Assembly: GCA_964633505.1 (NCBI GenBank)
Contig: CAZWHC010000013.1
Coordinates: 11,685 to 75,684 of the forward strand
Direction of reading: 5' to 3'
DNA from: an uncultured Rikenellaceae bacterium
GTDB lineage: Bacteria; Bacteroidota; Bacteroidia; Bacteroidales; VadinHA17
DNA length: 64,000 bases
The notes under the pieces are model-generated. The model did no database searches, was not told the origin of the DNA, and saw nothing but the letters and a program-made list of their open reading frames with translations. Positions 1,805 through 60,936 of the stretch are shown piece by piece. Numbering within the stretch: position 1 is the stretch's first letter; each line of letters opens with the position of its first letter. The position numbers and the translations under genes were made by a program.

Positions 1805-3640
1805 TTATTCAACTGTAACTGATTTGGCAAGGTTTCTGGGTTGATCTACATTGCAGCCTCTGAGGACAGCTATATGATATGACAGAAGCTGAAGGGGGAT
1901 TACAGCCAGTACAGCCGAGAATGCAGGCAGCGTCTCAGGCACTTCGAGAACAAAGTCGGCCATCCTTTTTATCAGCTCATCGCCTTCTGTAACAATGGCA
2001 ATCACATTACCCTTGCGTGCTTTTATCTCCTGAATATTGCTTATTATTTTCTCGTATGTATCATCTTTCGTGGCTACAACCACCACCGGCATATTCTCAT
2101 CAATAAGTGCAATTGGTCCGTGCTTCATCTCGGCTGCGGGATATCCTTCAGCATGTATGTAGGAGATCTCCTTCAGTTTAAGAGCTCCTTCGAGAGCCAC
2201 GGGAAAAAGGAAACCCCTGCCAAGATACAGGGCATTCCGGGTTTGCTGGTATTTGGTTGCAAGTTCAAATACCTGGTCATTCATTTTAAGGGCCTTTTCA
2301 ATTTTTGAAGGTATTGAAACAAGTTCGTCGATAAGAAGTTTGTATTTCTCAGGCGAAATGATGCCTTTCAGGAAACCTATCTCAAAAGCCATCATTGCAA
2401 GTACTGTCACCTGTGTTGTGAAAGCCTTTGTTGATGCAACTCCTATTTCAGGTCCGGCATGGGTATATACGCCAGCATTGGTTTCACGCGGGATGCTGGA
2501 GCCAACCACATTGCAGATGCCAAGCACTATTGCGCCCTTTTCCTTTGCAAGTTTTACGGCAGCAAGAGTATCTGCTGTTTCGCCGCTCTGGCTGATGGCT
2601 ATTACGATATCTCCCTTTTTTATTATCGGATCCCTGTACCGGAACTCCGAAGCATATTCGACCTCGACAGGTATTCTTGTATATTCCTCAAAAAGATATT
2701 CTCCAAGTAAACCTGCATGCCATGATGTGCCGCAGGCGACAATTATTATCCTTTCCGATTGCGATATCGTCTCAAGGACGCTGTGCAGGCCCCCGAGCAT
2801 TATACCACTATGGTCGGGAAGAACTCTTCCCCTGAAGGTATCATGGATTGCCCTGGGCTGTTCATTGATCTCCTTGAGCATAAAATGGGCGAAACCCTCC
2901 TTGTCGATCTCCCCGATTTTCAGGTCGACCTGTTTTACCTCTGGTTCCCTTCTTCCGGGCCTTATATTTTTCAGGATAAGCTCATCCCTTTTTACAATGG
3001 CAATATCATCATCCTTAAGGTAAATAACTCTCTGGGTATGTTCTACAATGGGTGTGGCATCAGATGCTATAAAATTCTCTCCTTCCCCCACTCCGATTAC
3101 AAGTGGACTGCCCTTGCGTGCGGCAAAAAGCTTATCTGTCTCCTTTGTACAGATTATGACAAGGCCATAGGCGCCCTCGACCCTGTTCAGAGCCAGTGAT
3201 ATTGCCTGTTCAGCCGTAAGATCCCCTTCAAGATACAAATGTTCAATCAGGTTGGCCAGGACTTCAGTGTCGGTCTGGCTGGTGAATTCGATTCCCCGGC
3301 TTTGAAGATGTTTTTTTATAAGGGCATAATTTTCGATAATGCCGTTGTGTACAACGACAAAATTACCTTTATAGGAAACCTGGGGATGGGCATTCAGCTC
3401 ATTGGGCTCACCATGTGTGGCCCATCTTGTATGCCCCATACCAACAGAGCCGTTGAAATCAGTCTGATTCACCATCTCCTCAAGGTCAGTAACCCTGCCT
3501 TTGCATTTGAATATCTTCGTTTCTCCGTTAACAATGGCAAGGCCTGCCGAGTCATAACCCCTGTATTCGAGCCGTTTCAGGCCCTTGATCACTATCTCGC
3601 GGGCTGGTTTTGTTCCAATATATCCTACAATTCCACACAT
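1805..3640 (-). CDS. glmS: Glutamine--fructose-6-phosphate aminotransferase (isomerizing)
   Basis: 611 aa with N-terminal MCGIVGYIG (Ntn amidotransferase Cys), tandem SIS-type region and C-terminal ...LAKSVTVE. Confidence 0.97.
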   Translation of the reverse strand: MCGIVGYIGTKPAREIVIKGLKRLEYRGYDSAGLAIVNGETKIFKCKGRVTDLEEMVNQTDFNGSVGMGHTRWATHGEPNELNAHPQVSYKGNFVVVHNGIIENYALIKKHLQSRGIEFTSQTDTEVLANLIEHLYLEGDLTAEQAISLALNRVEGAYGLVIICTKETDKLFAARKGSPLVIGVGEGENFIASDATPIVEHTQRVIYLKDDDIAIVKRDELILKNIRPGRREPEVKQVDLKIGEIDKEGFAHFMLKEINEQPRAIHDTFRGRVLPDHSGIMLGGLHSVLETISQSERIIIVACGTSWHAGLLGEYLFEEYTRIPVEVEYASEFRYRDPIIKKGDIVIAISQSGETADTLAAVKLAKEKGAIVLGICNVVGSSIPRETNAGVYTHAGPEIGVASTKAFTTQVTVLAMMAFEIGFLKGIISPEKYKLLIDELVSIPSKIEKALKMNDQVFELATKYQQTRNALYLGRGFLFPVALEGALKLKEISYIHAEGYPAAEMKHGPIALIDENMPVVVVATKDDTYEKIISNIQEIKARKGNVIAIVTEGDELIKRMADFVLEVPETLPAFSAVLAVIPLQLLSYHIAVLRGCNVDQPRNLAKSVTVE

Positions 3641-3750
3641 AACCGGATTATATAAAAGTTAATAAAACGTCCTGATAAAATCAGGCCATATCATAGGTAA
3701 GAAAACGTATAAAGAAACGCAATTATTGCTGATACACAGAAAGAAGATGA

Positions 3751-4557
3751 TCAGGAAAGCAAGGTGTCATAAAAGTCGTTATAGGCATCTATATATTTCG
3801 ATTCATCCTGGAACTCAAGCACAGGTTTATTAATCGACCTGATATGCTTCTGCAGCTCGCTGTTTATCTCCTCGCTGCCTACAATCACTGCATCAGAATA
3901 TTTAATTGCAAGTTTTGAGACATTAACAAAATCGGGGGTTTTGACAAGCTTAAGGCTTTCCCCGTCAATACCGTCAAACCTCAGTTTATCGGCGAATGTC
4001 GGACGGAAGGGTGTTTTGAAATCGTTGTTATATACCGAGTAAACAATCTTATAATTATGGAACAAAGGATCATCATTGTAGATATTCCTGAGATAAACAG
4101 GAACAAGAGCAGCCATCCAGCCGTGACAATGAACAATATCGGGAGCCCACCTCAGTTTTTTTACAGTCTCAATGACACCCCTGGCAAAGAAGAGCGCCCT
4201 CTCATCATTGTCTTCAAACTCCTTGCCCCCGGCATCGGCCACAGTATGCTTGCGCTGAAAATAATCTTCATTGTCAATGAAGTAGACCTGCATGCGGGCC
4301 GACTGAATTGAGGCTACCTTAATGATGAGCGGATGGTCGGTGTCGTCGATGATGAGATTCATCCCTGAAAGCCTTATCACCTCATGAAGCTGATTCCTCC
4401 TTTCATTGATACTGCCGTAACGTGGCATGAAAGTCCTTATCTCCTTCCCTTTATCCTGAATACCCTGAGGAAGATACCTGCCAATTTTTGACAACTTAGT
4501 TTCACCAAGATAGGGAGTGATTTCCTGAGAAATGAATAATACCTTTTTGCTTTCCAT
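3751..4557 (-). CDS. Short glycogen/starch synthase-like protein (GT5 N-terminal half only)
   Basis: 268 aa: KVLFISQEITPY..., HCHGWMAALVP. It resembles only the N-terminal Rossmann half of GlgA. Confidence 0.75.
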   Translation of the reverse strand: MESKKVLFISQEITPYLGETKLSKIGRYLPQGIQDKGKEIRTFMPRYGSINERRNQLHEVIRLSGMNLIIDDTDHPLIIKVASIQSARMQVYFIDNEDYFQRKHTVADAGGKEFEDNDERALFFARGVIETVKKLRWAPDIVHCHGWMAALVPVYLRNIYNDDPLFHNYKIVYSVYNNDFKTPFRPTFADKLRFDGIDGESLKLVKTPDFVNVSKLAIKYSDAVIVGSEEINSELQKHIRSINKPVLEFQDESKYIDAYNDFYDTLLS

Positions 4558-4592
4558 TTACATGCCTGGATATACCATTCCGTAACAAGTTG

Positions 4593-4600
4593 CAAAGATA
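4593..4600 (-). promoter_or_regulatory. Bacteroidetes-type -7 box (TATCTTTG on minus strand)
   Basis: Matches TAnnTTTG, 35 nt upstream of the ATG at 4557. Confidence 0.4.
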
Positions 4601-4705
4601 ATAATAAAAAATGACATAATTGCCAACACACAAATGGCGGAAATACAGAGTTCCCTATGTTTTAAAATATTTTATTAACCGGGGCTTTTAATCCTTATTT
4701 TCATT

Positions 4706-4713
4706 TAGGTTTG
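4706..4713 (+). promoter_or_regulatory. Bacteroidetes-type -7 box (TAGGTTTG) for panC
   Basis: Matches TAnnTTTG, 17 nt upstream of the ATG at 4731. Confidence 0.45.
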
Positions 4714-4730
4714 CAGAAAATCTTTCGGAA

Positions 4731-5585
4731 ATGAAAGTCATTGCCAAAAAAGACGAACTGTCGGGGTTCATAAAGGAGGCCGGATTATCGCCCGTGGGCT
4801 TTGTTCCTACGATGGGAGCTCTCCATCAGGGACATATCTCCCTTGTTGAAAATGCTGTGTTGCAGTGCCCTCTCACCGTGGTTAGTATCTACGTGAATCC
4901 CACACAGTTCAATGATAAAAATGACCTGCGTAACTATCCCCGCTGTCTTCCCGACGATCTTAAGCTTCTTGCAGGTGCGATGCGTGAAAATGATGTTGTA
5001 TTTATTCCCGACGACAGGGAAATGTACCCTGAAGAGGATAAAAGAATATTTGATTTCGGTAACCTCGCGAATGTAATGGAGGCCCTCCACCGGCCCGGTC
5101 ATTTTAATGGCGTTGCGCAGGTAGTATCAAAGTTGTTCGATATAGTAAATCCTGATATTGCCTTTTTCGGGCAGAAGGATTTCCAGCAGGTAGCTGTCAT
5201 ACGTGAACTGGTAAGGCAGAACGGTTATAAGGTAAAGATTATAGCCTGCCCGATAGTAAGGGAGAAGGATGGACTTGCAATGAGCAGCAGGAATCAGCTC
5301 CTTGAGCCACAGATACGCTTAGATGCCCCTGTCATTTATTCTTCAATTTCCTCAGCGGCTGAAAAAATTACAGCCCTCGATATTCCATCGCTGAAGAATA
5401 AGGTTAAAAGGGATATCGAAAAAAAAGAGGGATTTAAGGTTGAATATTTTGAAATTGTGGATGACCGGGAGTTAATACCCGTTGCTTCGAGGAAAGAAAT
5501 GCAACCCGGGAAACGGTATTTTGGCTGCATCGCTGTTAAGGCGGGAAGGATACGTTTGATAGATAATATTGAAATTCCCTTGTAA
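4731..5585 (+). CDS. panC: Pantoate--beta-alanine ligase
   Basis: 284 aa with the PTMGALHQGH motif (HIGH-like) and a typical PanC layout. Confidence 0.95.
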   Translation: MKVIAKKDELSGFIKEAGLSPVGFVPTMGALHQGHISLVENAVLQCPLTVVSIYVNPTQFNDKNDLRNYPRCLPDDLKLLAGAMRENDVVFIPDDREMYPEEDKRIFDFGNLANVMEALHRPGHFNGVAQVVSKLFDIVNPDIAFFGQKDFQQVAVIRELVRQNGYKVKIIACPIVREKDGLAMSSRNQLLEPQIRLDAPVIYSSISSAAEKITALDIPSLKNKVKRDIEKKEGFKVEYFEIVDDRELIPVASRKEMQPGKRYFGCIAVKAGRIRLIDNIEIPL

Positions 5586-5602
5586 TCAATCAAAAGGATA
5601 GC

Positions 5603-5610
5603 TAAATTTG
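5603..5610 (+). promoter_or_regulatory. Bacteroidetes-type -7 box (TAAATTTG) ahead of panD
   Basis: Matches TAnnTTTG, 24 nt upstream of the ATG at 5635. It overlaps the TTG used as start in the ORF track, which argues for the internal ATG. Confidence 0.4.
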
Positions 5611-5634
5611 CGGCTTGAAAATAACGGTATCAGG

Positions 5635-5985
5635 ATGCTAATAGAAATACTCAAATCGAAGATCCACCAGGTGACTGTCACAGAGGCTAACCTGAATTAT
5701 GTCGGAAGCGTAACTATCGATGAGGATCTGATGGATGCATCAGGGATTATTGAAAACGAAAAAGTACAGGTTCTTGACATCAATAACGGAGAACGTCTCG
5801 AAACCTACGTCATAAAAGGGAAAAGAGGTTCGGGTGAGATCTGCATGAACGGTCCGGCAGCAAGGAAAGTTGCAGTCGGCGATGTAATCATAATTATGTC
5901 ATTTGCATCTCTCGATTTCGAGGAGGCAAAATCATTCAGACCCTCAATCATTTTCCCCGATACAAACACAAATAAGCTCATATAG
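5635..5985 (+). CDS. panD: Aspartate 1-decarboxylase
   Basis: [29 protein letters not shown] contains the Gly-Ser self-processing site. Start moved from the track TTG at 5608 to the ATG at 5635. Confidence 0.93.
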
Positions 5986-8501: not shown

Positions 8502-8525
8502 CTCCTTGCTTGCGCTCCGCAAAAC

Positions 8526-8578
8526 AACCCACCCCTGCCCCCACGCTGGTGCGTGGCAGGCTCTCCCGGGAGGGGATC
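8526..8578 (+). repeat. G/C-rich palindromic repeat, long variant (copy A)
   Basis: aacccacccctgccccc...ggcaggctctcccgggaggggatc. It shares the ACCCACCCCT head and the GGCAGGCTCTCC-NN-GGAGGGGA tail with copies at 56696-56749 and 57207-57267. Confidence 0.75.
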
Positions 8579-8579
8579 A

Positions 8580-8614
8580 CAACCTGCAACTTGCAACCTG
8601 CAACTTGCAACTTC
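8580..8614. repeat. Heptamer tandem repeat (CAACYTG) x5
   Basis: caacctg caacttg caacctg caacttg caacttc, ending exactly at the PBP1A stop codon (cta at 8615-8617). Confidence 0.9.
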
Positions 8615-40985: not shown

Positions 40986-40996
40986 TGGTACATTTT

Positions 40997-41068
40997 ATTA
41001 GTTGAATGGTTTAATGGTTTAATGGTTTAATAGTTGAATGGTTTAATAGTTGAATGGTTTATTATTGT
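40997..41068. repeat. Octamer tandem repeat array (AATGGTTT / AATAGTTG) x9
   Basis: attagttg aatggttt x3 aatagttg aatggttt aatagttg aatggttt attattgt. It begins 12 nt upstream of the gntR start codon. Confidence 0.9.
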
Positions 41069-50670: not shown

Positions 50671-53179
<2,509 letters not shown>

Positions 53180-53357
53180 TTATTAATGTTTTAAGGATTT
53201 ACTTAATTTAAATCCCGTAAAAGGAAAATTTCTGATTTAAAAAATGGCTGGAGTTATGGCGGAATACATTTTACCGGCGCATGCACATAGGCATGAGCGG
53301 TATTTGAAGTATTTCCCTGATCTGACAGAATGTTCTCATTGTTTTCCGTGTTTATTT

Positions 53358-53480
53358 TTATCATCTCCCGAACAATCGGGATTAGGTTTTGGCACCTTAA
53401 TCCGTCATCCTGCATTTTTCATTCTGCCGGATTGGTTGCCAGGGTTTCACTGAGCCTAATCTCTCCGCCCTTCTTAATAA
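53358..53480 (-). promoter_or_regulatory. SAM-I (S-box) riboswitch aptamer
   Basis: The minus strand reads UUAUUAAGAAGGGCGGAGAGAUUAGGCUCAGUGAAACCCUGGCAACCAAUCCGGCAG...AAGGUGCCAAAACC...GGGAGAUGAUAA. P1 is UUAUUA/UGAUAA. The GGAGxGA...GGCxC...GAAxCC...GGCAACC and AAGGUGCCAA blocks match the SAM-I consensus. Confidence 0.85.
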
Positions 53481-53523
53481 AAATCAAACACCCTTTATGG
53501 AAGGAATATTTGATTTGTGAGTG

Positions 53524-53554
53524 CAAATGTAGGAATGATTTTGAAATATGCAAA
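53524..53554 (-). promoter_or_regulatory. Bacteroidetes sigma-A promoter (-33 TTTG, 19-nt spacer, -7 TACATTTG) driving the SAM-I leader and met operon
   Basis: On the minus strand: TTTG (53554-53551), a 19-nt spacer, then TACATTTG (53531-53524), about 45 nt upstream of riboswitch P1. Confidence 0.6.
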
Positions 53555-53601
53555 AAAATGTTGACAGTCAATTAGCAATGCCCGTGTAAGGTTTTTTCCC
53601 T

Positions 53602-53609
53602 TACTTTTG
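53602..53609 (+). promoter_or_regulatory. Bacteroidetes-type -7 box (TACTTTTG) for cysS
   Basis: Matches TAnnTTTG, 19 nt upstream of the ATG at 53629. Confidence 0.45.
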
Positions 53610-53628
53610 TCGTGTAATTCATCATTCC

Positions 53629-55098
53629 ATGAAGAATAACTTCACAATCTACAATAGTCTTTCACGGCAGAAAGAGATTTTCAAACCCCTGAATCCGCCA
53701 TTTGCAGGTATTTATGTCTGCGGACCTACAGTTTACAGCAATGCTCATCTCGGGCATGCCAGGCCGGCAATAACATTTGACCTGCTTTACCGCTACCTGC
53801 TTCATCTGGGCTATAAGGTCAGATATGTAAGGAACATAACAGATGTCGGGCATCTCGAAAATGATGCTGATGAAGGCGAGGACAAGATTGAGAAGACAGC
53901 ACGGCTTGAGCATCTGGAACCGATGGAGGTGGTTCAGAATTATATGAACACCTTCCACAGGAACATGGATCAGCTCAACACCCTCAAACCATCAATAGAA
54001 CCGAGGGCTTCGGGACATATCATTGAACAACAGGAGTTTATAAGGCTTCTTCTCGATAAAGGCTATGCCTATGAGGTGAACGGATCTGTATATTTTGATG
54101 TGCTGCTTTACAATCAGACATATAAATACGGGAAACTGTCGGGACGTATTCTTGAAGATCTTCAGACAAATACAAGGGAACTGGAGGGGCAGGAAGAAAA
54201 AAGAAATCCCTTTGATTTTGCTCTTTGGAAAAAAGCCTCACCGGGTCATCTTATGAAATGGCCATCGCAATGGAGCGACGGTTATCCGGGATGGCATCTC
54301 GAATGTTCAGCGATGAGCATTAAATATCTTGGAGAAGTTTTTGATATCCATGGAGGAGGGATGGACCTGCAGTTCCCGCATCACGAGTGTGAAATTGCAC
54401 AGTCGACCGGAGCCCTTGGACATGAGTCGGTAAGATACTGGATGCACAATAACATGATCACCATAAACGGTCAGAAGATGGCGCGGTCGCTTGGTAATTT
54501 CATTACTCTCGACCAGCTGTTCAGCGGTGATCATCCCATGCTTGAACAGGCATACAGCCCGATGACAATCAGGTTCTTTATCCTGCAGGCTCATTACAGG
54601 AGCACTGTCGATTTCTCCAATGAGGCTCTGCAGGCGGCAGAAAAAGGATTGCAGAGGCTCTTCAAGGGATTGGAGACACTTGCAAAGCTTAAACCCTGCG
54701 AAAGCTCGACTGTCGATATAAACGATCTTAAGAAGAAATGCTATGACGCAATCGATGATGATCTGAACAGTCCGGTATTGCTGTCATATCTGTTTGAAGG
54801 AGTGAAATATATAAACCAGGTTAATGACGGCACCGAAAAGCTTAATGCTGATGATCTGGAGTCGCTTAAAAACCTGCTTCACACTTTTGTTTTTGATATT
54901 CTTGGTCTTGATGCAGGATCAGAAAGCGGCGGTGATGAAAAGCTTACGGCAGAGCTTATGAATATTATAATCGGCCTCCGTCAGGACGCCAGGGTTAAAA
55001 AAGACTTTGCCACATCCGACAAGATAAGGGATGAGCTTAAAAAAGCAGGTGTCATCCTGAAGGATAAGAAGGAAGGTGTTGAATGGGAAAAAGAATAA
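53629..55098 (+). CDS. cysS: Cysteine--tRNA ligase
   Basis: 489 aa with HIGH (NAHLGHA) and a KMSKS variant (KMARS). Confidence 0.96.
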
Positions 55099-55102
55099 AA
55101 AC

Positions 55103-55164
55103 AGGGGCCAGGGGTGGTTTGGATTTGATCCCCTCCCGGGAGGGGTAAGGGGTGGGTTGGATTT
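55103..55164 (-). repeat. G/C-rich palindromic repeat (copy C: short variant plus truncated unit) filling the cysS-ispG intergenic space
   Basis: The reverse complement of 55127-55164 is aaatccaacccaccccttacccctcccgggaggggatc, 38/38 identical to 57167-57204. It contains the 16-nt perfect palindrome cccctcccgggagggg and the run GGGAGGGGTAAGGGGTGGG (55138-55156). Confidence 0.85.
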
Positions 55165-55165
55165 C

Positions 55166-57115
55166 TCAGGATGGCTTTTTGCCAATATCTTCCTCAATAA
55201 TCCTCAGCAGCTCTTTCGCAGCCTCCTTCTGATTTACATTTTTCAGCACAGGCTCCATGCCCCTGTAAATATGAACCTTATCGGGTCCGGCACCAACATA
55301 TCCATAATCAGATCCGGCCATTTCACCTGGTCCGTTCACTATGCATCCCATTATTGCGATCCTGATACCGCTTAAGTGACTCGTCATCTGCTTCACTTCC
55401 TTTACTGCATCCTGAAGGTCGAATTTTGTTCGTCCGCATGTTGGGCATGACAGATATGTTACTCTTGTTATCCTGGCCTCAGTAGACTGCAAAAGTGAGA
55501 ATGCAAGTTCTCTGAGTTTTTCACCATGAACCGTACCTTTATTGCTTATACAAACACCGTCTGCCTGTTTTGTTATGAAGTATTTACCGAGTATTGATCC
55601 GATATCTATGGCAAGCTTTTCAGGATCATTTTCACTGAAAACAGGATTAAGTATAGTTGTGCCAGTATTTTTACGAATTACGAATTTCTCATATGGGTTG
55701 AAAGTGGAAATTGTAACATTTGTTACTTTCCCGTTTTCATCAAGGAAAGTTTCCTTTTCGGCAGTAAAGACTTCCGGTTTGTAAGGTTTCAGATGATTTT
55801 TAAATTCAAGTCTTTCTGAAGGCTCTTTAATCCGTCCATCTGGTCCTGCAATTGCGCGAAGGATTTCTTTTGCCACTGGTATCTCATTTTCCGGCGCTTC
55901 CGAGAGTGAGACCCTGATTGTATCACCTATACCTTCTGAAAGAAGAGCTCCTATCCCTGCAGCCGATCTCATCCTCCCGTCTTCCCCTTCTCCTGCTTCA
56001 GTGACACCAAGATGCAGCGGATATGCAAATCCTCCTGCAGTCATCATGTCGGCTAAAAGACGGGTAGCTTTTATCATCACTGCGGTATCCGACGATTTCA
56101 TCGAAAGTACTAGTGAATGGAAGTTCTCAGCTCTGAGAATCTTTATGAACTCCATTGCCGAAACAGCCATTCCTTCAGGTGTATTACCATACCTGGTCAT
56201 AATCCTGTCGGAAAGTGATCCGTGATTTACACCGATCCGGACAGCTGTCCCATTTGCAGTGCATATTTTGAGTAACGGAACAATTCTGGCATGAATCCTT
56301 TCAAGTTCTTCAGCATATTCCTTATCTGTGAATTCGGTTAAGGTGAAAGAGGCCCTCTTATCAACATAGTTCCCCGGATTTATCCTTATCTTTTCTACTA
56401 TTCCGGCAGCAACTTCGGCAACAGCGGGATTGAAATGGATATCTGCAATAAGAGGAGTATTAAACCCTGCCTTTCGAAGTTCATATTTAATATTTGCAAG
56501 GTTTTCCGCTTCCTTTACGCCCTGGGCTGTAATCCTGACAAAGTCGGCCCCGGCCTCGATTATCCTTATGCATTGTGCTACTGTTGCCCTGGTATCAAGG
56601 GTGTTTGTGTTTGTCATCGACTGGATCCTTACAGGATAGTCGCCTCCAAGAGGAACCGAACCTATAAATACTGGAGTGGAGATGTACCTTCTTAAGTTCC
56701 CCTCCCTGGAGAGCCTGCCCTGCTCCAGCGGGGGGTCAGGGGTGGGTCTCTTCCTCTCTACCCAATCCTCAATTACACTTAAAACATTCCACATATTCTT
56801 TTTAACTTCCAAATCATCAAATCTCAGGAAGCTAACTCCGAGCTTTTCAAGTTCCCTTTGCCTTTCTTCATCGTAGTCATACCTGTAAGTATGTGAGTCT
56901 CCATCAATCTCGATAGCAAGACTCAACTCCTTGCAATAAAAATCGACAATATAATTGCCAATTGGAATTTGCCGGTCAAAATCAAAACCAAGGATTTTCT
57001 TTTGCTTCAATTCATTCCATAGAAGAACTTCTGAAAGGGTCATGTTTTTTCGTAATTGCCTTGCAAGCTCTTTTAATTCAGGATTATATGGGATGATCGT
57101 ATGCTTTTTAGGCAT
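55166..57115 (-). CDS. ispG: Fusion ORF: N-terminal DUF559 endonuclease-like domain, repeat-encoded linker, then 4-hydroxy-3-methylbut-2-en-1-yl diphosphate synthase (IspG/GcpE, long form)
   Basis: 649 aa. Residues 1-120 are DUF559-like (YNPELKELARQLRKNMTLSEVLLWNELK...YIVDFYC...LAIEIDGDSH...FLRFDDLEV). Residues 123-141, RPTPDPPLEQGRLSREGNL, are a translated repeat. From residue 142 the sequence is IspG-like (RRYISTPVFIGSVPLGGDYPVRIQSMTNT...CPTCGRT). Confidence 0.85.
   Translation of the reverse strand: MPKKHTIIPYNPELKELARQLRKNMTLSEVLLWNELKQKKILGFDFDRQIPIGNYIVDFYCKELSLAIEIDGDSHTYRYDYDEERQRELEKLGVSFLRFDDLEVKKNMWNVLSVIEDWVERKRPTPDPPLEQGRLSREGNLRRYISTPVFIGSVPLGGDYPVRIQSMTNTNTLDTRATVAQCIRIIEAGADFVRITAQGVKEAENLANIKYELRKAGFNTPLIADIHFNPAVAEVAAGIVEKIRINPGNYVDKRASFTLTEFTDKEYAEELERIHARIVPLLKICTANGTAVRIGVNHGSLSDRIMTRYGNTPEGMAVSAMEFIKILRAENFHSLVLSMKSSDTAVMIKATRLLADMMTAGGFAYPLHLGVTEAGEGEDGRMRSAAGIGALLSEGIGDTIRVSLSEAPENEIPVAKEILRAIAGPDGRIKEPSERLEFKNHLKPYKPEVFTAEKETFLDENGKVTNVTISTFNPYEKFVIRKNTGTTILNPVFSENDPEKLAIDIGSILGKYFITKQADGVCISNKGTVHGEKLRELAFSLLQSTEARITRVTYLSCPTCGRTKFDLQDAVKEVKQMTSHLSGIRIAIMGCIVNGPGEMAGSDYGYVGAGPDKVHIYRGMEPVLKNVNQKEAAKELLRIIEEDIGKKPS
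56696..56749 (-). repeat. G/C-rich palindromic repeat, long variant (copy D), lying inside the fusion ORF
   Basis: The reverse complement reads acccacccctgaccccccgctggagcagggcaggctctccagggaggggaa, about 50/55 identical to copy B2 at 57207-57267 in inverted orientation. Confidence 0.85.
56765..57115 (-). other. DUF559 (Vsr-like endonuclease fold) domain-coding segment of the fusion ORF
   Basis: Motifs as listed for the fusion ORF. This length is that of a stand-alone DUF559 protein. Confidence 0.8.
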
Positions 57116-57166
57116 TGTGTAACTCTTTTAATCAAATTATTAGTTGTTGATGGGAGCAAGTTTTTA

Positions 57167-57306
57167 AAATCCAACCCACCCCTTACCCCTCCCGGGAGGG
57201 GATCTGAAAACCAACCCACCCCTAGCCCCCCGATGGAGCAGGGCAGGCTCTCCAAGGAGGGGAATTTGAAAGAAACCCACCCCTGGCCCCTCCAGGGAGG
57301 GGAACC
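57167..57306 (+). repeat. Block of three G/C-rich palindromic repeat units (B1 short, B2 long, B3 short)
   Basis: B1 is 57167-57204, B2 is 57207-57267 and B3 is 57270-57306. Each begins A-rich plus ACCCACCCCT and ends CC-NGG-GAGGGGA. Confidence 0.85.
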
Positions 57307-57331
57307 CTCTCAATGGTCATCTGTCCTCTTT

Positions 57332-57408
57332 CCCTGAGCCCTGAGCCCTGAGCCCTGTGCCCTGTGCCCTGAGCCCTGTGCCCTGAGCCCTGTGCCCTGA
57401 GCCCTGAG
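57332..57408. repeat. Heptamer tandem repeat (CCCTGWG) x11
   Basis: ccctgag x3, ccctgtg x2, ccctgag, ccctgtg, ccctgag, ccctgtg, ccctgag x2. A 12th degenerate unit, cccttca, contains the rnr stop codon (tca at 57413-57415). Confidence 0.9.
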
Positions 57409-57412
57409 CCCT

Positions 57413-59542
57413 TCAGGCAAACCTATAATCAAGCTGTTTTTTCTGAAGGTCTGCTTTGACGACCTCAACCTTCACCCTGTCGCCCAGAGTATATACCTTT
57501 CCCCTTGAACGGCCCCTGATGCAGTAGTTTTCCTCATCATATTCATAATAATCATCGCCCAGATCCCTTACGCTTACCATCCCTTCGCATTGATTCTCAA
57601 TGATCTCGACATAGATACCCCATTCAGTGACTCCTGAGATCACACCTTCGAAGACCTGGCCGGTCCTTTCGCTCATAAACTCCACCTGTTTATATTTTAC
57701 AGATGCTCTTTCGGCCTCATTTGCAAGCCTTTCCATCTTTGAGGAGTGCTCACAAAGCTTTTCATATTTTTCCTGGGTCCCGGGATTTTCCCTGCTCAGG
57801 TATGAAGTAAGCAGCCGGTGTACCATCATATCGGGGTAGCGGCGTATAGGAGATGTAAAGTGGGTATAATATTTAAATGCAAGTCCATAGTGCCCTATAT
57901 TTTTCGTTGAGTAGATTGCCTTGGCCATTGATCTCAGGGCGATAGTCTCGATTATATTCTGCTCGCTCCTGCCTGCAACCTCCTTCATGAGCTTGTTCAT
58001 GGCGCGGGGCAGGCTGTTTGCATCATCAGGAAGCTTATAGCCGAACCTTGTTATGAACTGTCTGAAGTTCCCGATCTTTTCAGGATCGGGTTTATCGTGT
58101 ATCCTGTAAACGAATGTTTTCCCTTTCAGGTTCCGTGTCACGAACTCAGCCACCTTCCTGTTTGCCAGAAGCATGAACTCTTCAATAAGCTGGTTGGAGG
58201 TTCCCATTTCGCGAAACTTTATTCCAACAGGCCTGCCGTTTTCATCAAGGTCAAATTTTACTTCCTCCCTCTCAAAGGAAAATGCGCCCATCCCGAACCG
58301 TTTTGTCCTGAGCTGCTGTGCAAGACTATGCAGAGGAAGCAGTAATTCTTTCATATCGCCTTCGCCGGTGTCGATTACCTTTTGGGCATCACCGTATGAA
58401 AACCTCCTGTCGGAATTAATAATTGTCTTCCCAAACCATTCATTCAGCACTTCTGCCCTTTCATTCAGTTCAAATACCGCAGAATATGTAAGTTTATCTT
58501 CCGACGGATTAAGGGAACAGATATGGTTCGACAATCTTTCGGGGAGCATCGGGACTACCCTGTCGACAAGATAAACTGATGTTGCCCTTTGCCTTGCCTC
58601 ATTTTCAACAACCGAACCCTGACGGACATAATGTGTTACGTCGGCGATATGAACTCCAACCTCGAAATTTCCGTTTTCGAGCTGTCTCATTGAAAGAGCG
58701 TCGTCGAAATCCTTCGCATCTTCAGGATCGATGGTGAATGTCGGGATATCGCGGAAATCCCTTCTTTCCTTAATATCAGCCTCTGTTATTTCACCATTAA
58801 TCCTTTCGGCATCCTTTTCAACCTCTTCATCGAACTTGTAGGGAAGCTCAAATTCTGCGAGGATGGCATGGATCTCTGTTTCATGCATCCCCGGGTCTCC
58901 AAGGACGTCAATGATCTCCGCAACAGGATTTTTTGATCCCCGGCTCCAGTCCACTACCTTTGCAACTGCTTTCTGCCCCTGTCTAGCACCGTTCAGCTTT
59001 GAGGAAGGGATGAACAGATCGAACGGCATATTTTTGTTATCGGGGATAAGAAAAGCGAAGTTGGGCATTATCTCAACGGTACCGACGAAAGATGTCCTCC
59101 AGCGTTCGATTATCTCTACAACTTCACCCTCGGGCCTTGCGCCTTTTCTTTTTGCAAACAGCCAGACTTTAACCTTATCGCCATGAAGTGCAGTATTGAG
59201 ATTCTTCGAAGAAACGAAGATATCATCATCACTTTCATCCGATTTTATGAAACCATAACCCATTCGTGTCATATCGACGGTTCCGGTTATATAAACCTTG
59301 GCCGGCGCCTTTGAACGGTATTTACCCTGATAGACTTCGACAATCTCGCCCTTCGCGGCAAGTTCCCTCAGTGCATTGGATACCATTCTCCTTTCAGACG
59401 AATCGTTAAAATTTAACCTTTTGGAGATTTGCTTATAATTAAATGTCTGCTGGGGATTCCCCGACAATACAGACATAATCTGGCCTGTTATCGCATCATC
59501 CGGCACTCCCTGCCGTTTTTTTCCTTTACCCTTCGAACTCAT
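57413..59542 (-). CDS. rnr: Ribonuclease R
   Basis: RNB catalytic domain, N-terminal winged-helix/cold-shock region and C-terminal S1 domain (…GVISGVTEWGIYVEI…). Start moved to the ATG at 59542 (MSSKGKGKKRQG); the track TTG start at 59614 abuts the divergent gene. Confidence 0.92.
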   Translation of the reverse strand: MSSKGKGKKRQGVPDDAITGQIMSVLSGNPQQTFNYKQISKRLNFNDSSERRMVSNALRELAAKGEIVEVYQGKYRSKAPAKVYITGTVDMTRMGYGFIKSDESDDDIFVSSKNLNTALHGDKVKVWLFAKRKGARPEGEVVEIIERWRTSFVGTVEIMPNFAFLIPDNKNMPFDLFIPSSKLNGARQGQKAVAKVVDWSRGSKNPVAEIIDVLGDPGMHETEIHAILAEFELPYKFDEEVEKDAERINGEITEADIKERRDFRDIPTFTIDPEDAKDFDDALSMRQLENGNFEVGVHIADVTHYVRQGSVVENEARQRATSVYLVDRVVPMLPERLSNHICSLNPSEDKLTYSAVFELNERAEVLNEWFGKTIINSDRRFSYGDAQKVIDTGEGDMKELLLPLHSLAQQLRTKRFGMGAFSFEREEVKFDLDENGRPVGIKFREMGTSNQLIEEFMLLANRKVAEFVTRNLKGKTFVYRIHDKPDPEKIGNFRQFITRFGYKLPDDANSLPRAMNKLMKEVAGRSEQNIIETIALRSMAKAIYSTKNIGHYGLAFKYYTHFTSPIRRYPDMMVHRLLTSYLSRENPGTQEKYEKLCEHSSKMERLANEAERASVKYKQVEFMSERTGQVFEGVISGVTEWGIYVEIIENQCEGMVSVRDLGDDYYEYDEENYCIRGRSRGKVYTLGDRVKVEVVKADLQKKQLDYRFA

Positions 59543-59587
59543 GATTCCGGTTTTTGCGAAGTTAGGAAAAGGATAATGAAAAAACAG

Positions 59588-59595
59588 TACATTTG
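59588..59595 (+). promoter_or_regulatory. Bacteroidetes-type -7 box (TACATTTG) for the PqqD-like operon
   Basis: Matches TAnnTTTG, 18 nt upstream of the ATG at 59614. Confidence 0.45.
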
Positions 59596-59613
59596 ATACA
59601 TAATTGAAATTCA

Positions 59614-59901
59614 ATGGCAGATCTCAGTTCGGTATTCACCCATTCACGCAATATTGTTACCAGGAAAACCGGGAATGAATATGTTCTTGTTCCGGTAGCG
59701 AATAACATTGCCGACATGAATAGTGTTTACACTCTCAATGAAACGGCGGCGTTTATCTGGGAACATCTCGACGGGAAGAAAAGTTTGAGGGAAATCGTTG
59801 ATTATCTGATCGAAGAATATGATATCGATTTTGATTCGGCGTCAGCAGATATGTCGGAATTCATTGACAATATGACTAAATACCTCATCATCAACAAATA
59901 A
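59614..59901 (+). CDS. PqqD-family protein (RiPP recognition element-like peptide chaperone)
   Basis: 95 aa: ...GNEYVLVPV...SVYTLNETAAFIWEHLDGKKSLREIVDYLIEEYDIDFDSASADMSEFIDNM fits the PqqD pattern (LN.t...iW..ldG..s..ei...l..eYdv....a..D...Fi). Confidence 0.8.
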   Translation: MADLSSVFTHSRNIVTRKTGNEYVLVPVANNIADMNSVYTLNETAAFIWEHLDGKKSLREIVDYLIEEYDIDFDSASADMSEFIDNMTKYLIINK

Positions 59902-60027
59902 TATAATATTTACAGTAAAAATGCGTTAATTCTTCAGAGTGATAAACAAAAGTAGAACATTATTCTCTGAAGAGTGCAGAATTTATATAGTCACAGTCAA
60001 AGCAGCGTAGGATTCTACTCTCTGTTA

Positions 60028-60936
60028 ATGGAAAAACAACAGATGAGCAGTATGAGAAGTTATAATCTGAATATAGCCGGGTATAATATAAGGTTGGAAT
60101 CTGCCGACGACGGACCCGATCTGGTCCCTTCGCAGCGGTTCAGGAAGAATATTGTCAGAAGTCCTCTTTATGATGTATGCATAAAGGTTCATCATGGAGG
60201 CCTGAGACCGGATGATGAGGCTGAAAGACTGTTTGTCGCTCCCTATATCGTTGAGATAAACGGATACAAGATCACCCGCAGTGACAATTTCTGGAGCGTA
60301 TACAAGCAAAACGGCGATTTACTTCTGGTAACTAATTTCCCTGATTCGCCCGGGAAAAAGGCTATCCTGAAGTTTTCCCTGTCGCTCAGGGAATGGGATC
60401 TCTGGATTGAAAATGCAGGCTATGAGACTGATCCCCTTGAATATCCCCTCGACGGACTTATTCTCTACTATCTCACTGCGATAAATGCCAACCTTATGAT
60501 ACATGCCTCAGGTGTTTTCTACAACGGACGGGGTTATTTATTCAGCGGGATGTCGGGTAAGGGTAAAACTACAATGGCCACTCTCTGGGATAACATAGGC
60601 GCCCAGGTAATACATGACGACAGGCTCATTATAAGGGATAACGAAGGAATTTTCAGGATGCACAATACCCCGGTTTACAGGAACGATATACCCCGCAGCG
60701 CTTCTATCGACAGGATTTTCCTTATTGAACATGGGAAGGAAAACAGGATCACACCTTTAAGGGAAGCCGCTGCTGTTTCAAATGTTGTGGCAAACTGCAT
60801 CCAGCATAATTACAGTCCCGATATGATAGCCAGGTTTCTCGGGTCTGTTTCACTGATGTGCTCGAAGGTGCCTGTTGCCAGGCTCACCTTCAGACCCGAC
60901 AGGAGCATCATTGAATATATTCTCAGGAATGAATAG
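60028..60936 (+). CDS. HprK-related P-loop kinase-like protein
   Basis: HASGVFYNGRGYLFSGMSGKGKTTMATLW...VIHDDRLII parallels the HPr kinase C-terminal domain (GxSGxGKS/T P-loop followed by ADD). The N-terminal 170 aa or so are unassigned. Start taken at the ATG at 60028; the track GTG at 59974 is possible. Confidence 0.72.
   Translation: MEKQQMSSMRSYNLNIAGYNIRLESADDGPDLVPSQRFRKNIVRSPLYDVCIKVHHGGLRPDDEAERLFVAPYIVEINGYKITRSDNFWSVYKQNGDLLLVTNFPDSPGKKAILKFSLSLREWDLWIENAGYETDPLEYPLDGLILYYLTAINANLMIHASGVFYNGRGYLFSGMSGKGKTTMATLWDNIGAQVIHDDRLIIRDNEGIFRMHNTPVYRNDIPRSASIDRIFLIEHGKENRITPLREAAAVSNVVANCIQHNYSPDMIARFLGSVSLMCSKVPVARLTFRPDRSIIEYILRNE

Follow-up and report, generated by a model that had tools for sequence, protein, structure and literature searches.

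Analysis of a 64,000-nt stretch of contig CAZWHC010000013.1 (hereafter the window) from an uncultured Rikenellaceae bacterium (assembly GCA_964633505.1) revealed a gene segment for a DUF559 nuclease that lies between inverted copies of a C-rich palindromic repeat and is fused in frame to ispG. DUF559 is among the commonest uncharacterised nuclease families and includes YcjD of Escherichia coli. Sequence comparison of this locus with 80 further DUF559 loci, sampled from one-genome-per-species contigs, indicates that the DUF559 unit with its inverted C-rich flanking repeats of 30-60 bp is a conserved, evolutionarily mobile, cross-phylum module. We somewhat favour a nuclease-plus-repeat system resembling REPIN/RAYT (RAYT, tyrosine transposase associated with REP, repetitive extragenic palindromic, sequences) and based on a Vsr-like nuclease, in which the repeat-gene-repeat unit would occasionally be copied whole. 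The copy in the window appears to be an old, vertically inherited resident of an ispG-linked clade, neither a recent selfish insert nor a decaying parasite. Loci are labelled L and proteins P throughout, and counts often refer to the 80 sampled loci plus the window (81).

The DUF559 unit and its repeats

A repeat search of the window returned a 54-nt inverted repeat (pair I1) with arms at 56694-56747 and 57214-57267, 91% complementary and with 466 nt between them. Inverted repeats bracketing the DUF559 segment had been claimed in an earlier note on this DNA, and the claim held, with its coordinates off by 1-3 nt. The unit measures 568 bp, since TTCCCCTCC begins at 56697 and GGAGGGGAA finishes at 57264, and the earlier estimate of about 570 bp was thus borne out. 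The right-end copy (56694-56749, minus strand; copy D of the earlier note) is translated as the linker PTPDPPLEQGRLSREGN, while its inverted partner is the left-end copy at 57207-57267 (plus strand; copy B2). Both are long forms of a repeat in which a box (ACCCACCCC) is followed, after a spacer of 2-3 nt, by the palindrome CCCCTCC-loop-GGAGGGG. The short form has about 38 nt, the long form, with an additional internal segment, about 54-61 nt, and copies commonly stand in tandem or as doublets. Allowing up to 2 mismatches, the repeat core ACCCACCCCTNNCCCC has 7 matches in the window where shuffled sequences predict 0.24, and 0 of 100 shuffles had as many. Matches lie on the plus strand at 8527, 57174, 57214 and 57275 and on the minus strand at 55104, 55142 and 56732; six of them are grouped at 55100-57305, and the seventh is a solo copy at 8516-8576, the one solo locus in these 64 kb.

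The DUF559 segment, a predicted Vsr-like PD-(D/E)XK nuclease, takes up codons 1-122 (56750-57115, minus strand; ATG at 57113-57115) of a 649-aa open reading frame (ORF; 55166-57115, minus strand). Pfam placed PF04480 (DUF559) at amino acids 14-116 (E 1.6e-29; 102.4 bits vs. a cut-off of 20.6), with a weak PF18741 match as the only other domain in this part and no HUH/Y1, DDE or serine/tyrosine recombinase domain. The NCBIfam YcjD equivalog PRK09767 scored 74 bits, under its cut-off of 218, so the window protein is not a YcjD orthologue. The DUF559 profile matched PDB 3hrl by sequence (E 6e-18), and a Foldseek search with an AlphaFold2 model (pLDDT 76) gave 3hrl (template modelling score, TM, 0.82) and 3r3p, the catalytic domain of I-Bth0305I (TM 0.79, E 7e-5; just 22% sequence identity), with Vsr itself (1vsr) more distant (TM 0.45). 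VSR, DUF559 and 3r3p belong to one PD-(D/E)XK clade (Steczkiewicz 2012, PMC3424549). Residues D58, E69, D71, G72 and H75 were invariant in an alignment of 15 sequences (A1). Between the window and locus L216, the ratio of nonsynonymous to synonymous divergence (dN/dS) was 0.043 for DUF559 (dS 0.39) and 0.090 for the IspG part of the same ORF (dS 0.41); further DUF559 pairs gave 0.06-0.20. Because the catalytic-type residues are invariant and dN/dS is low, the DUF559 gene is predicted to be functional; purifying selection on it is very strong. More than 5700 homologues of the DUF559 part were found at E < 1e-5, the best of them with about 75% identity and a length of about 133 aa. In nearly every homologue inspected the C-terminus reads ...KNKPTPxPSxEGN, the in-frame translation of the repeat, with up to 7 tandem copies in some. 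Foldseek matches to the model also included Toxoplasma/Tetrahymena mitoribosomal proteins (9i05, 9g6k, 6z1p; query-normalised TM about 0.5), which suggests that these proteins may share a DUF559-like fold.

The 80 sampled loci span Bacteroidales, Cytophagales, Flavobacteriales, Chitinophagales, Chlorobiota, Planctomycetota (Scalindua/Brocadiaceae), Victivallales and Pseudomonadota. In these loci and the window, we searched for repeats with an nhmmer profile and counted the copies up to 300 bp from the gene. Upstream of DUF559 we found 91 '-' vs. 16 '+' copies, and downstream 12 '-' vs. 92 '+' copies. Repeat density was 4.3/kb near DUF559 vs. 0.063/kb in the 3-kb flanks, an approximately 70-fold difference with which a strict regular expression agreed. 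The earlier note had named repeats at similar density around unrelated genes, or DUF559 copies elsewhere without flanking repeats, as fatal to the association, and both checks came out in its favour. Chance co-occurrence of repeats and DUF559 was rejected by the window shuffles and by this density contrast. With the short-form profile, an upstream '-' copy was present in 60/81 loci, a downstream '+' copy in 69/81 and both in 54/81, in the same inverted arrangement as in the window; several of the remaining loci, the window included, carry the long form, which this profile misses. The commonest layout was '- gene +' (24 loci). Opposite-orientation copies, where found, were almost always distal ('+- gene +-'), so that the gene is flanked by inverted doublets. 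The downstream '+' repeat overlaps the 3' end of the DUF559 gene: at Bacteroidales loci it begins 5 nt past codon 122, with some 20 nt between the ATG and the nearest upstream motif. Sequence hardly varies in the box and stem (CCCTCC/GGAGGG unchanged in 193/224 copies), while the loop and the box-stem spacer vary, a pattern that would be expected of a sequence-specific recognition element.

Solo copies elsewhere, also proposed earlier, proved common in metagenomes. An exact 29-nt repeat pattern was found in at least 120 stretches of metagenome contigs, and 91 matches in 80 of these metagenome loci were examined. Among the matches listed, solo copies and '+ -' doublets dominated, many of the latter with 20-30-nt spacers, '- +' doublets were rare, and 11 of the 91 lay within 600 bp of a DUF559 domain. 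On GC-rich soil contigs (L093-L172, e.g., L103, L108, L126, and L151) the symmetry of '+ -' doublets reached further (ccatgaACCCACCCC ... GGGGTGGGTtcatgg) and the doublets were nested in a longer palindromic unit, ggttcatgga...gggaccatga plus doublet, in places tandemly iterated. A second, related family resembling miniature inverted-repeat transposable elements (MITEs), with the ends TTTCCCCTCCTTTTGAAGGAGGGGTGGCC ... GGCCGGGGTGGTT, forms inverted pairs of about 200 bp (L004:5380-5450, L023:890-1100, L029:30-390), and a third, CTCACCCCCC..CCCCCTCTCT...AGAGAGGGGG, occurs as doublets between ispG and rnr in L006 and L013. Viral origin of the repeat was rejected: only 8 exact matches were found in 2.9 million viral contigs, 0/8 of them near DUF559.

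Evidence for movement, fusion and inversion of the module

The genes next to DUF559 modules belong to many unrelated groups, most of them seen at a single locus. Several metagenome-assembled genomes (MAGs) hold at least two DUF559 copies, and such paralogues were similar solely between the outer repeat ends, from TCCCCTCC to GGAGGGGA(GTTT). L058 and L081 were 87% identical over 463 nt, with unrelated sequence outside TCCCCTCC and GGAGGGGAGTTT, and similarity was likewise confined to the module in L014/L023 (89% over 484 nt) and L031/L072 (91% over 583 nt).

The earlier note had looked to empty versus occupied sites, and we found them at two loci: the hsdR linker, vacant in relatives of 91-95% identity, and the cysS-ispG junction. 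In at least four phyla, hsdR, encoding a type I restriction subunit, carries the module in frame in the linker that joins its HSDR_N and helicase domains (L035, L036, L037, and L074 at 1966-5745; proteins P0128-P0240). Among the best 120 HsdR homologues of L074, 108 carry DUF559 and 12 do not, and the latter include the closest relatives of L074 apart from the insert-bearing P0121 (98-99% identical). L074 has the in-frame layout '++ - DUF559 ++', L082 (flanks 94.5% identical to L074) retains one decayed '+' repeat, read as PTPNLSQEGD, and L084 (flanks 92.8% identical) has neither repeat nor module. The L074 insert is 52% identical to that of an HsdR with 83%-identical flanks, yet 64% identical to the window DUF559. 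These values argue that the site acquired the module independently, and the hsdR insertions look horizontal. One HsdR with DUF559 (P0182) has an additional GIY-YIG domain (PF01541). In-frame fusions were also found to cysQ-like genes at four loci (L030, L040, L043, and L050) and to thiE-like genes at two (L057 and L073).

At the cysS-ispG junction, the DUF559 ORF passes beyond the unit's edge: behind the N-terminal DUF559 domain and the repeat-encoded linker it runs on through IspG (GcpE; 55166-56693, minus strand; PF04551, E 1.6e-117). We ruled out an assembly artefact because independent assemblies give the identical protein: the same 649 aa occur in an independent Logan assembly and as a 100% match on a 180-kb JGI contig (P0241), and a 99% copy is present in NCBI (P0242). 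Among unfused IspG proteins, the closest relatives share 87% identity with the window IspG. L214 and L215 represent a clean empty site without any repeat, cysS-TAG-gca-ATG-ispG, which in L214 continues ATG AAA TAT. L213 bears a scar, a decayed box remnant with the hairpin TCCCCCTCCCGGCAGGGGAA and the same right junction as the window, with DUF559 absent, while L216 (93% identical) is occupied and fused. Compared with L214, the window IspG has AGA at the ancestral ATG position, 5 nt past the repeat end, and the DUF559 module supplies the sole start codon of this essential protein. Because ispG's own ATG was lost in fused lineages, IspG would be produced there as a DUF559-IspG fusion or via unconventional initiation. 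Such fusions make up 31 of the nearest 120 IspG homologues; among the loci studied here, ispG is fused in frame in the window, L003, L011, L015, L012, and L017. The number of in-frame repeat units differs between fusions and reaches about 15 in L012.

The gene order cysS(+), [repeats-DUF559-repeats](+), ispG(+), rnr(-) recurs at no fewer than 15 Bacteroidales loci. In the window, cysS lies on the plus strand and both DUF559-ispG and rnr lie on the minus strand. By blastn, L213 1-3563 and 5259-8596 are collinear with window 51578-55145 and 57412-60750, while L213 3551-5130 is reversed (window 56711-55130), as is L216 1-2161 (window 57203-55104). From these strand switches we concluded that the window has DUF559-ispG in inverted orientation compared with L213, L214 and L216. 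The break regions, about 55104-55145 and 57203-57412, both fall within repeat clusters, and the '+' copies required for the inversion are present downstream of ispG in L216. Pair I3 (55127-55164 and 57167-57204) is perfect (38/38 nt) in the window and its counterparts in L216 differ from one another, which suggests that gene conversion shaped the window pair. Between species of Pontibacter, the DUF559 module itself is flipped while the genes on either side are homologous (L053 vs. L063, L051 vs. L065).

The repeat cluster of the window holds further copies. The left end has three: an innermost short form (57167-57204, plus strand; box ACCCACCCC, TA and palindrome CCCCTCCCGGGAGGGG), the long form described above and another short form (57268-57305, plus strand; direct-repeat family D3, motif match at 57275). 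Between the innermost copy and the ATG lies an AT-rich 51-nt leader (57116-57166, minus strand), the presumed promoter and translation-start region. On the other side of ispG, a short-form copy directly adjoins the stop codon (55127-55164, minus strand) and is also present in the non-inverted L216; between it and the cysS stop lies a truncated repeat, a box without hairpin (55100-55126, minus strand; motif match 55104-55119). The solo copy at 8516-8576 (plus strand; pair I2) is a long form between convergent radA and a PBP1A-like gene and belongs to the same direct-repeat family (D4) as 57207-57267. The window has only two period-7 arrays, and each directly adjoins a repeat copy: 11.6 x CCCTGAG/CCCTGTG between the cluster and the rnr end (57332-57412; Tandem Repeats Finder, TRF, score 134) and CAACTTG x 4.9 beside the solo repeat (8580-8613; TRF). 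Heptamer arrays of other unit sequences stand beside repeats in many metagenome loci (e.g., L091, L116, L144, L159, and L161). In a crude genome-wide test, enrichment of period-7 arrays near repeats was weak (6/370 sites vs. 5/1107 random positions). An unrelated AT-rich tandem array of period 8/16, TTTAATAGTTGAATGG x 4.2, lies at 40994-41061. An Rfam scan of 54500-58000 gave a single sub-threshold match to a long non-coding RNA (lncRNA), which was spurious, and no intron.

A proposed mechanism and its rivals

We infer that the nuclease would bind and nick the repeats and that this activity would drive their spread. Under the REPIN/RAYT-like reading, DUF559 would recognise the conserved box and palindrome in the repeats that flank its gene, nicking at these sites, host replication or repair would copy the repeats to new sites, and now and then the whole repeat-gene-repeat unit would be copied. 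Solo and doublet repeats would be derivatives that make up most copies. In nearly all homologues the right-end repeat is translated as ...PTPxPSxEGN, and because sequence containing the repeats is commonly free of stops in the frame of the gene, the unit could survive either between genes or inside genes as linker-domain-linker. At the window locus, the module may have landed a few nt from the ispG start, downstream of cysS; it is translationally fused to IspG, provides its start codon and has been co-inherited under strong purifying selection. An inversion with breaks in the repeat clusters has flipped DUF559-ispG between cysS and rnr.

Several results weigh against this reading. Among the metagenome matches listed with enough flank to judge, only 5/47 lay within 600 bp of DUF559 and about 89% lay away from it, and all 8 viral-contig matches (8/8) lacked DUF559 nearby. 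At 16 ispG-linked loci, pairwise DUF559 identity (mean 78%) tracked IspG identity (mean 81%; r = 0.67), and dS was nearly equal for the two parts (0.39 vs. 0.41). Because DUF559 thus co-diverges with ispG, movement must be rare, and the gene may serve the host instead of itself. No target-site duplication was detected at the module ends in the L058/L081 copies or the L074 insert, a mark of transposition for which the earlier note had proposed a search. A covariation test was uninformative because the stem is invariant, and it cannot separate structural constraint from protein recognition. Folded as DNA, single repeat copies had energies no better than shuffled sequence (z -1.4 to +0.3), so hairpin stability alone is no evidence. 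A lone 120-aa PD-(D/E)XK nuclease is not known to act as a transposase, and the putative link between DUF559 and the repeat is drawn from sequence. In E. coli, the C-rich repeat family seen at ycjD is present in 5426/5426 complete genomes (median 19 copies per genome), while ycjD, at ≥80% coverage, is present in 3377/5426 and absent from about 38%, so repeats can persist without the gene. The earlier note's mobile cassette therefore stands in part: paralogy limited to the module and the empty sites speak for it, while the window copy has not moved recently (dS 0.39 vs. 0.41, dN/dS 0.043).

We consider it unlikely that DUF559 is a selfish homing endonuclease which targets the repeat and spreads by double-strand-break repair, the solo repeats being unoccupied targets. 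Such an enzyme would fit the fold, closest to the homing endonuclease I-Bth0305I and in one clade with Vsr, the occupied and empty versions of identical sites in host genes of 87-95% identity, the decayed solo repeat in the hsdR site of L082, the two DUF559 subfamilies at one hsdR linker and the majority of gene-free repeats. The gene, however, sits between two complete inverted repeats rather than two halves of one target; '- +' doublets, the expected empty target, are rare and '+ -' doublets common; and the clean empty site in L214 has no repeat at all. Long vertical persistence at a dN/dS of 0.04 is also unlike the usual gain-decay-loss cycle of homing genes, and Rfam and Pfam scans found no intron, intein (Hint domain) or transposase accompanying the module. 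The homing- or MITE-like architecture of the earlier note is accordingly upheld for the terminal inverted repeats and empty sites and fails for target-site duplication, intron, intein and transposase.

It is also rather improbable that the two are independent neighbours, REP-like repeats spread by other means (as terminators, mRNA stabilisers or insulators) that gather at DUF559 because a potentially toxic nuclease needs insulation or operators, with DUF559 acting in repair or defence. The position of repeats at gene ends and between convergent genes (8516-8576), the distance of most copies from DUF559, the host-like purifying selection, the repeat family kept in the E. coli genomes without ycjD, and the other palindromic families in the ispG-rnr spacer of relatives, therefore a general hot spot, all agree with it. 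Yet it leaves unexplained the paralogue homology bounded exactly by the outer repeat ends, the in-frame module inside hsdR complete with repeats, the joint near-constancy of gene and repeat across phyla and the strict orientation rule, and PADLOC gave no significant defence-family match for DUF559. A programmed inversion switch, in which the inverted repeats would be recombination sites flipping DUF559 or DUF559-ispG as an on/off or promoter swap, seems highly improbable. The inverted window segment with breaks in repeat clusters, the Pontibacter species pairs and the perfect pair I3 would suit it, but inversions were observed between species or lineages only, not inside one assembly, and the conserved neighbourhood (homoserine dehydrogenase, Cys/Met enzyme, cysS, ispG, rnr, PqqD, ScmC) contains no invertase or recombinase gene. 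Flipping an essential gene along with its sole start codon makes no obvious switch, and the empty sites, paralogues and in-frame insertions would go unaccounted for.

Relation to known systems

In E. coli K-12 (L217, NC_000913.3 1351200-1351800), the ycjD ORF ends within a C-rich hairpin (ACCCTCTCCCTGAAAGAGCGAGGGGG), and 154 nt beyond it, towards fabI, lies an inverted copy of the same build: hairpin, TTA and G-rich box (GGGTGAGGGG). This arrangement resembles that of the window, but the repeat sequence differs and no copy was seen upstream of ycjD. The spacer past ycjD includes a duplicate of the gene's last 45 nt or so. The family is probably boxC, reportedly first described beside envM (fabI). 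Its copy number matches a table in PMC2267715. We tentatively suggest, with more doubt than belief, that C-rich 'box + hairpin' repeats make up a superfamily spanning phyla, boxC of E. coli perhaps among them, and that DUF559 proteins, with YcjD for boxC, are its cognate nucleases. They would then form a second, HUH-independent REPIN/RAYT-like system, with the gene-plus-repeat unit a new type of mobile element, driven by a lone Vsr-like nuclease and capable of in-frame insertion, including into essential genes, since repeat sequence that stays open would serve as a linker. If true, DUF559 would gain a function with a specific substrate, its own flanking repeat, the origin of widespread C-rich palindromic repeats would be explained as RAYTs did for REPs, and a PD-(D/E)XK-based type would be added to the mobile elements. 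The in-frame behaviour offers a route to domain insertions and gene fusions (31/120 and 108/120 of the nearest IspG and HsdR homologues), and, to judge by the breakpoints in repeat clusters, the repeats may also favour inversions around essential genes. A nuclease this compact, with a putative defined recognition element of about 30 bp, may also be of practical interest.

In the literature on DUF559, COG2852, YcjD and PF04480 we found no description of a repeat association; the sole trace is a table entry in Milman et al. 2023 (PMC9881135), where DUF559 genes are among the enriched targets of predicted inversions (odds ratio 14.3). Repeat-bounded inversions also occur in the DUF559 loci studied here, without an associated invertase, and PMC9881135 is silent on repeat family, mobility and fusions. 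The module shares with I-Bth0305I (EDxHD family, Vsr-like, PDB 3r3p) the fold class, the PD-(D/E)XK clade of DUF559/Vsr (PMC3424549) and polymorphism for presence or absence at one fixed position of conserved host genes. Unlike I-Bth0305I, with which it has 22% identity, it has no group I intron or intein around it, lies between inverted repeats and is translated within the host protein, unspliced. MITEs and their autonomous insertion sequence (IS) parents likewise combine terminal inverted repeats with an 'autonomous' form that codes for protein and with numerous short derivatives that do not. In our case, the ends are hairpin-forming repeats, often in tandem arrays, with no DDE, HUH or serine/tyrosine recombinase and no detected target-site duplication. 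Rickettsia palindromic elements (RPE) are reported to insert in frame in protein genes (Ogata et al. 2000). Here too palindromic repeats are tolerated as in-frame peptides (PTPNLSQEGD in the L082 HsdR and the linkers of IspG, CysQ-like and ThiE-like proteins); RPEs, however, are gene-free, whereas the repeats here enclose a whole nuclease domain.

The REPIN/RAYT systems (PMC3116915, PMC3337134, PMC5581495) also have a low-copy nuclease gene between inverted short GC-rich palindromic repeats. Their repeats are scattered in tens to hundreds of extragenic copies per genome, many of them inverted short-spacer doublets, and their gene is mostly single-copy and vertical at a conserved position under purifying selection. 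The module may share both traits: solo copies and doublets abound on metagenome contigs, and DUF559 co-diverges with ispG, although the hsdR insertions look horizontal and some MAGs have two copies. They differ in the enzyme, an HUH/Y1 IS200-type transposase that defines RAYTs, in place of which the module has a PF04480 Vsr-like PD-(D/E)XK enzyme. In contrast to them, the 3' end of the ORF here reaches into the repeat, which is translated, the gene is found duplicated and inserted in frame within genes together with its repeats, several MAGs hold at least two copies, and the repeat is almost unchanged across phyla. Lacking the RAYT enzyme, the transposase and target-site duplication of IS and MITEs and the intron or intein of classical homing, the module nevertheless shares behaviour with each of the three.

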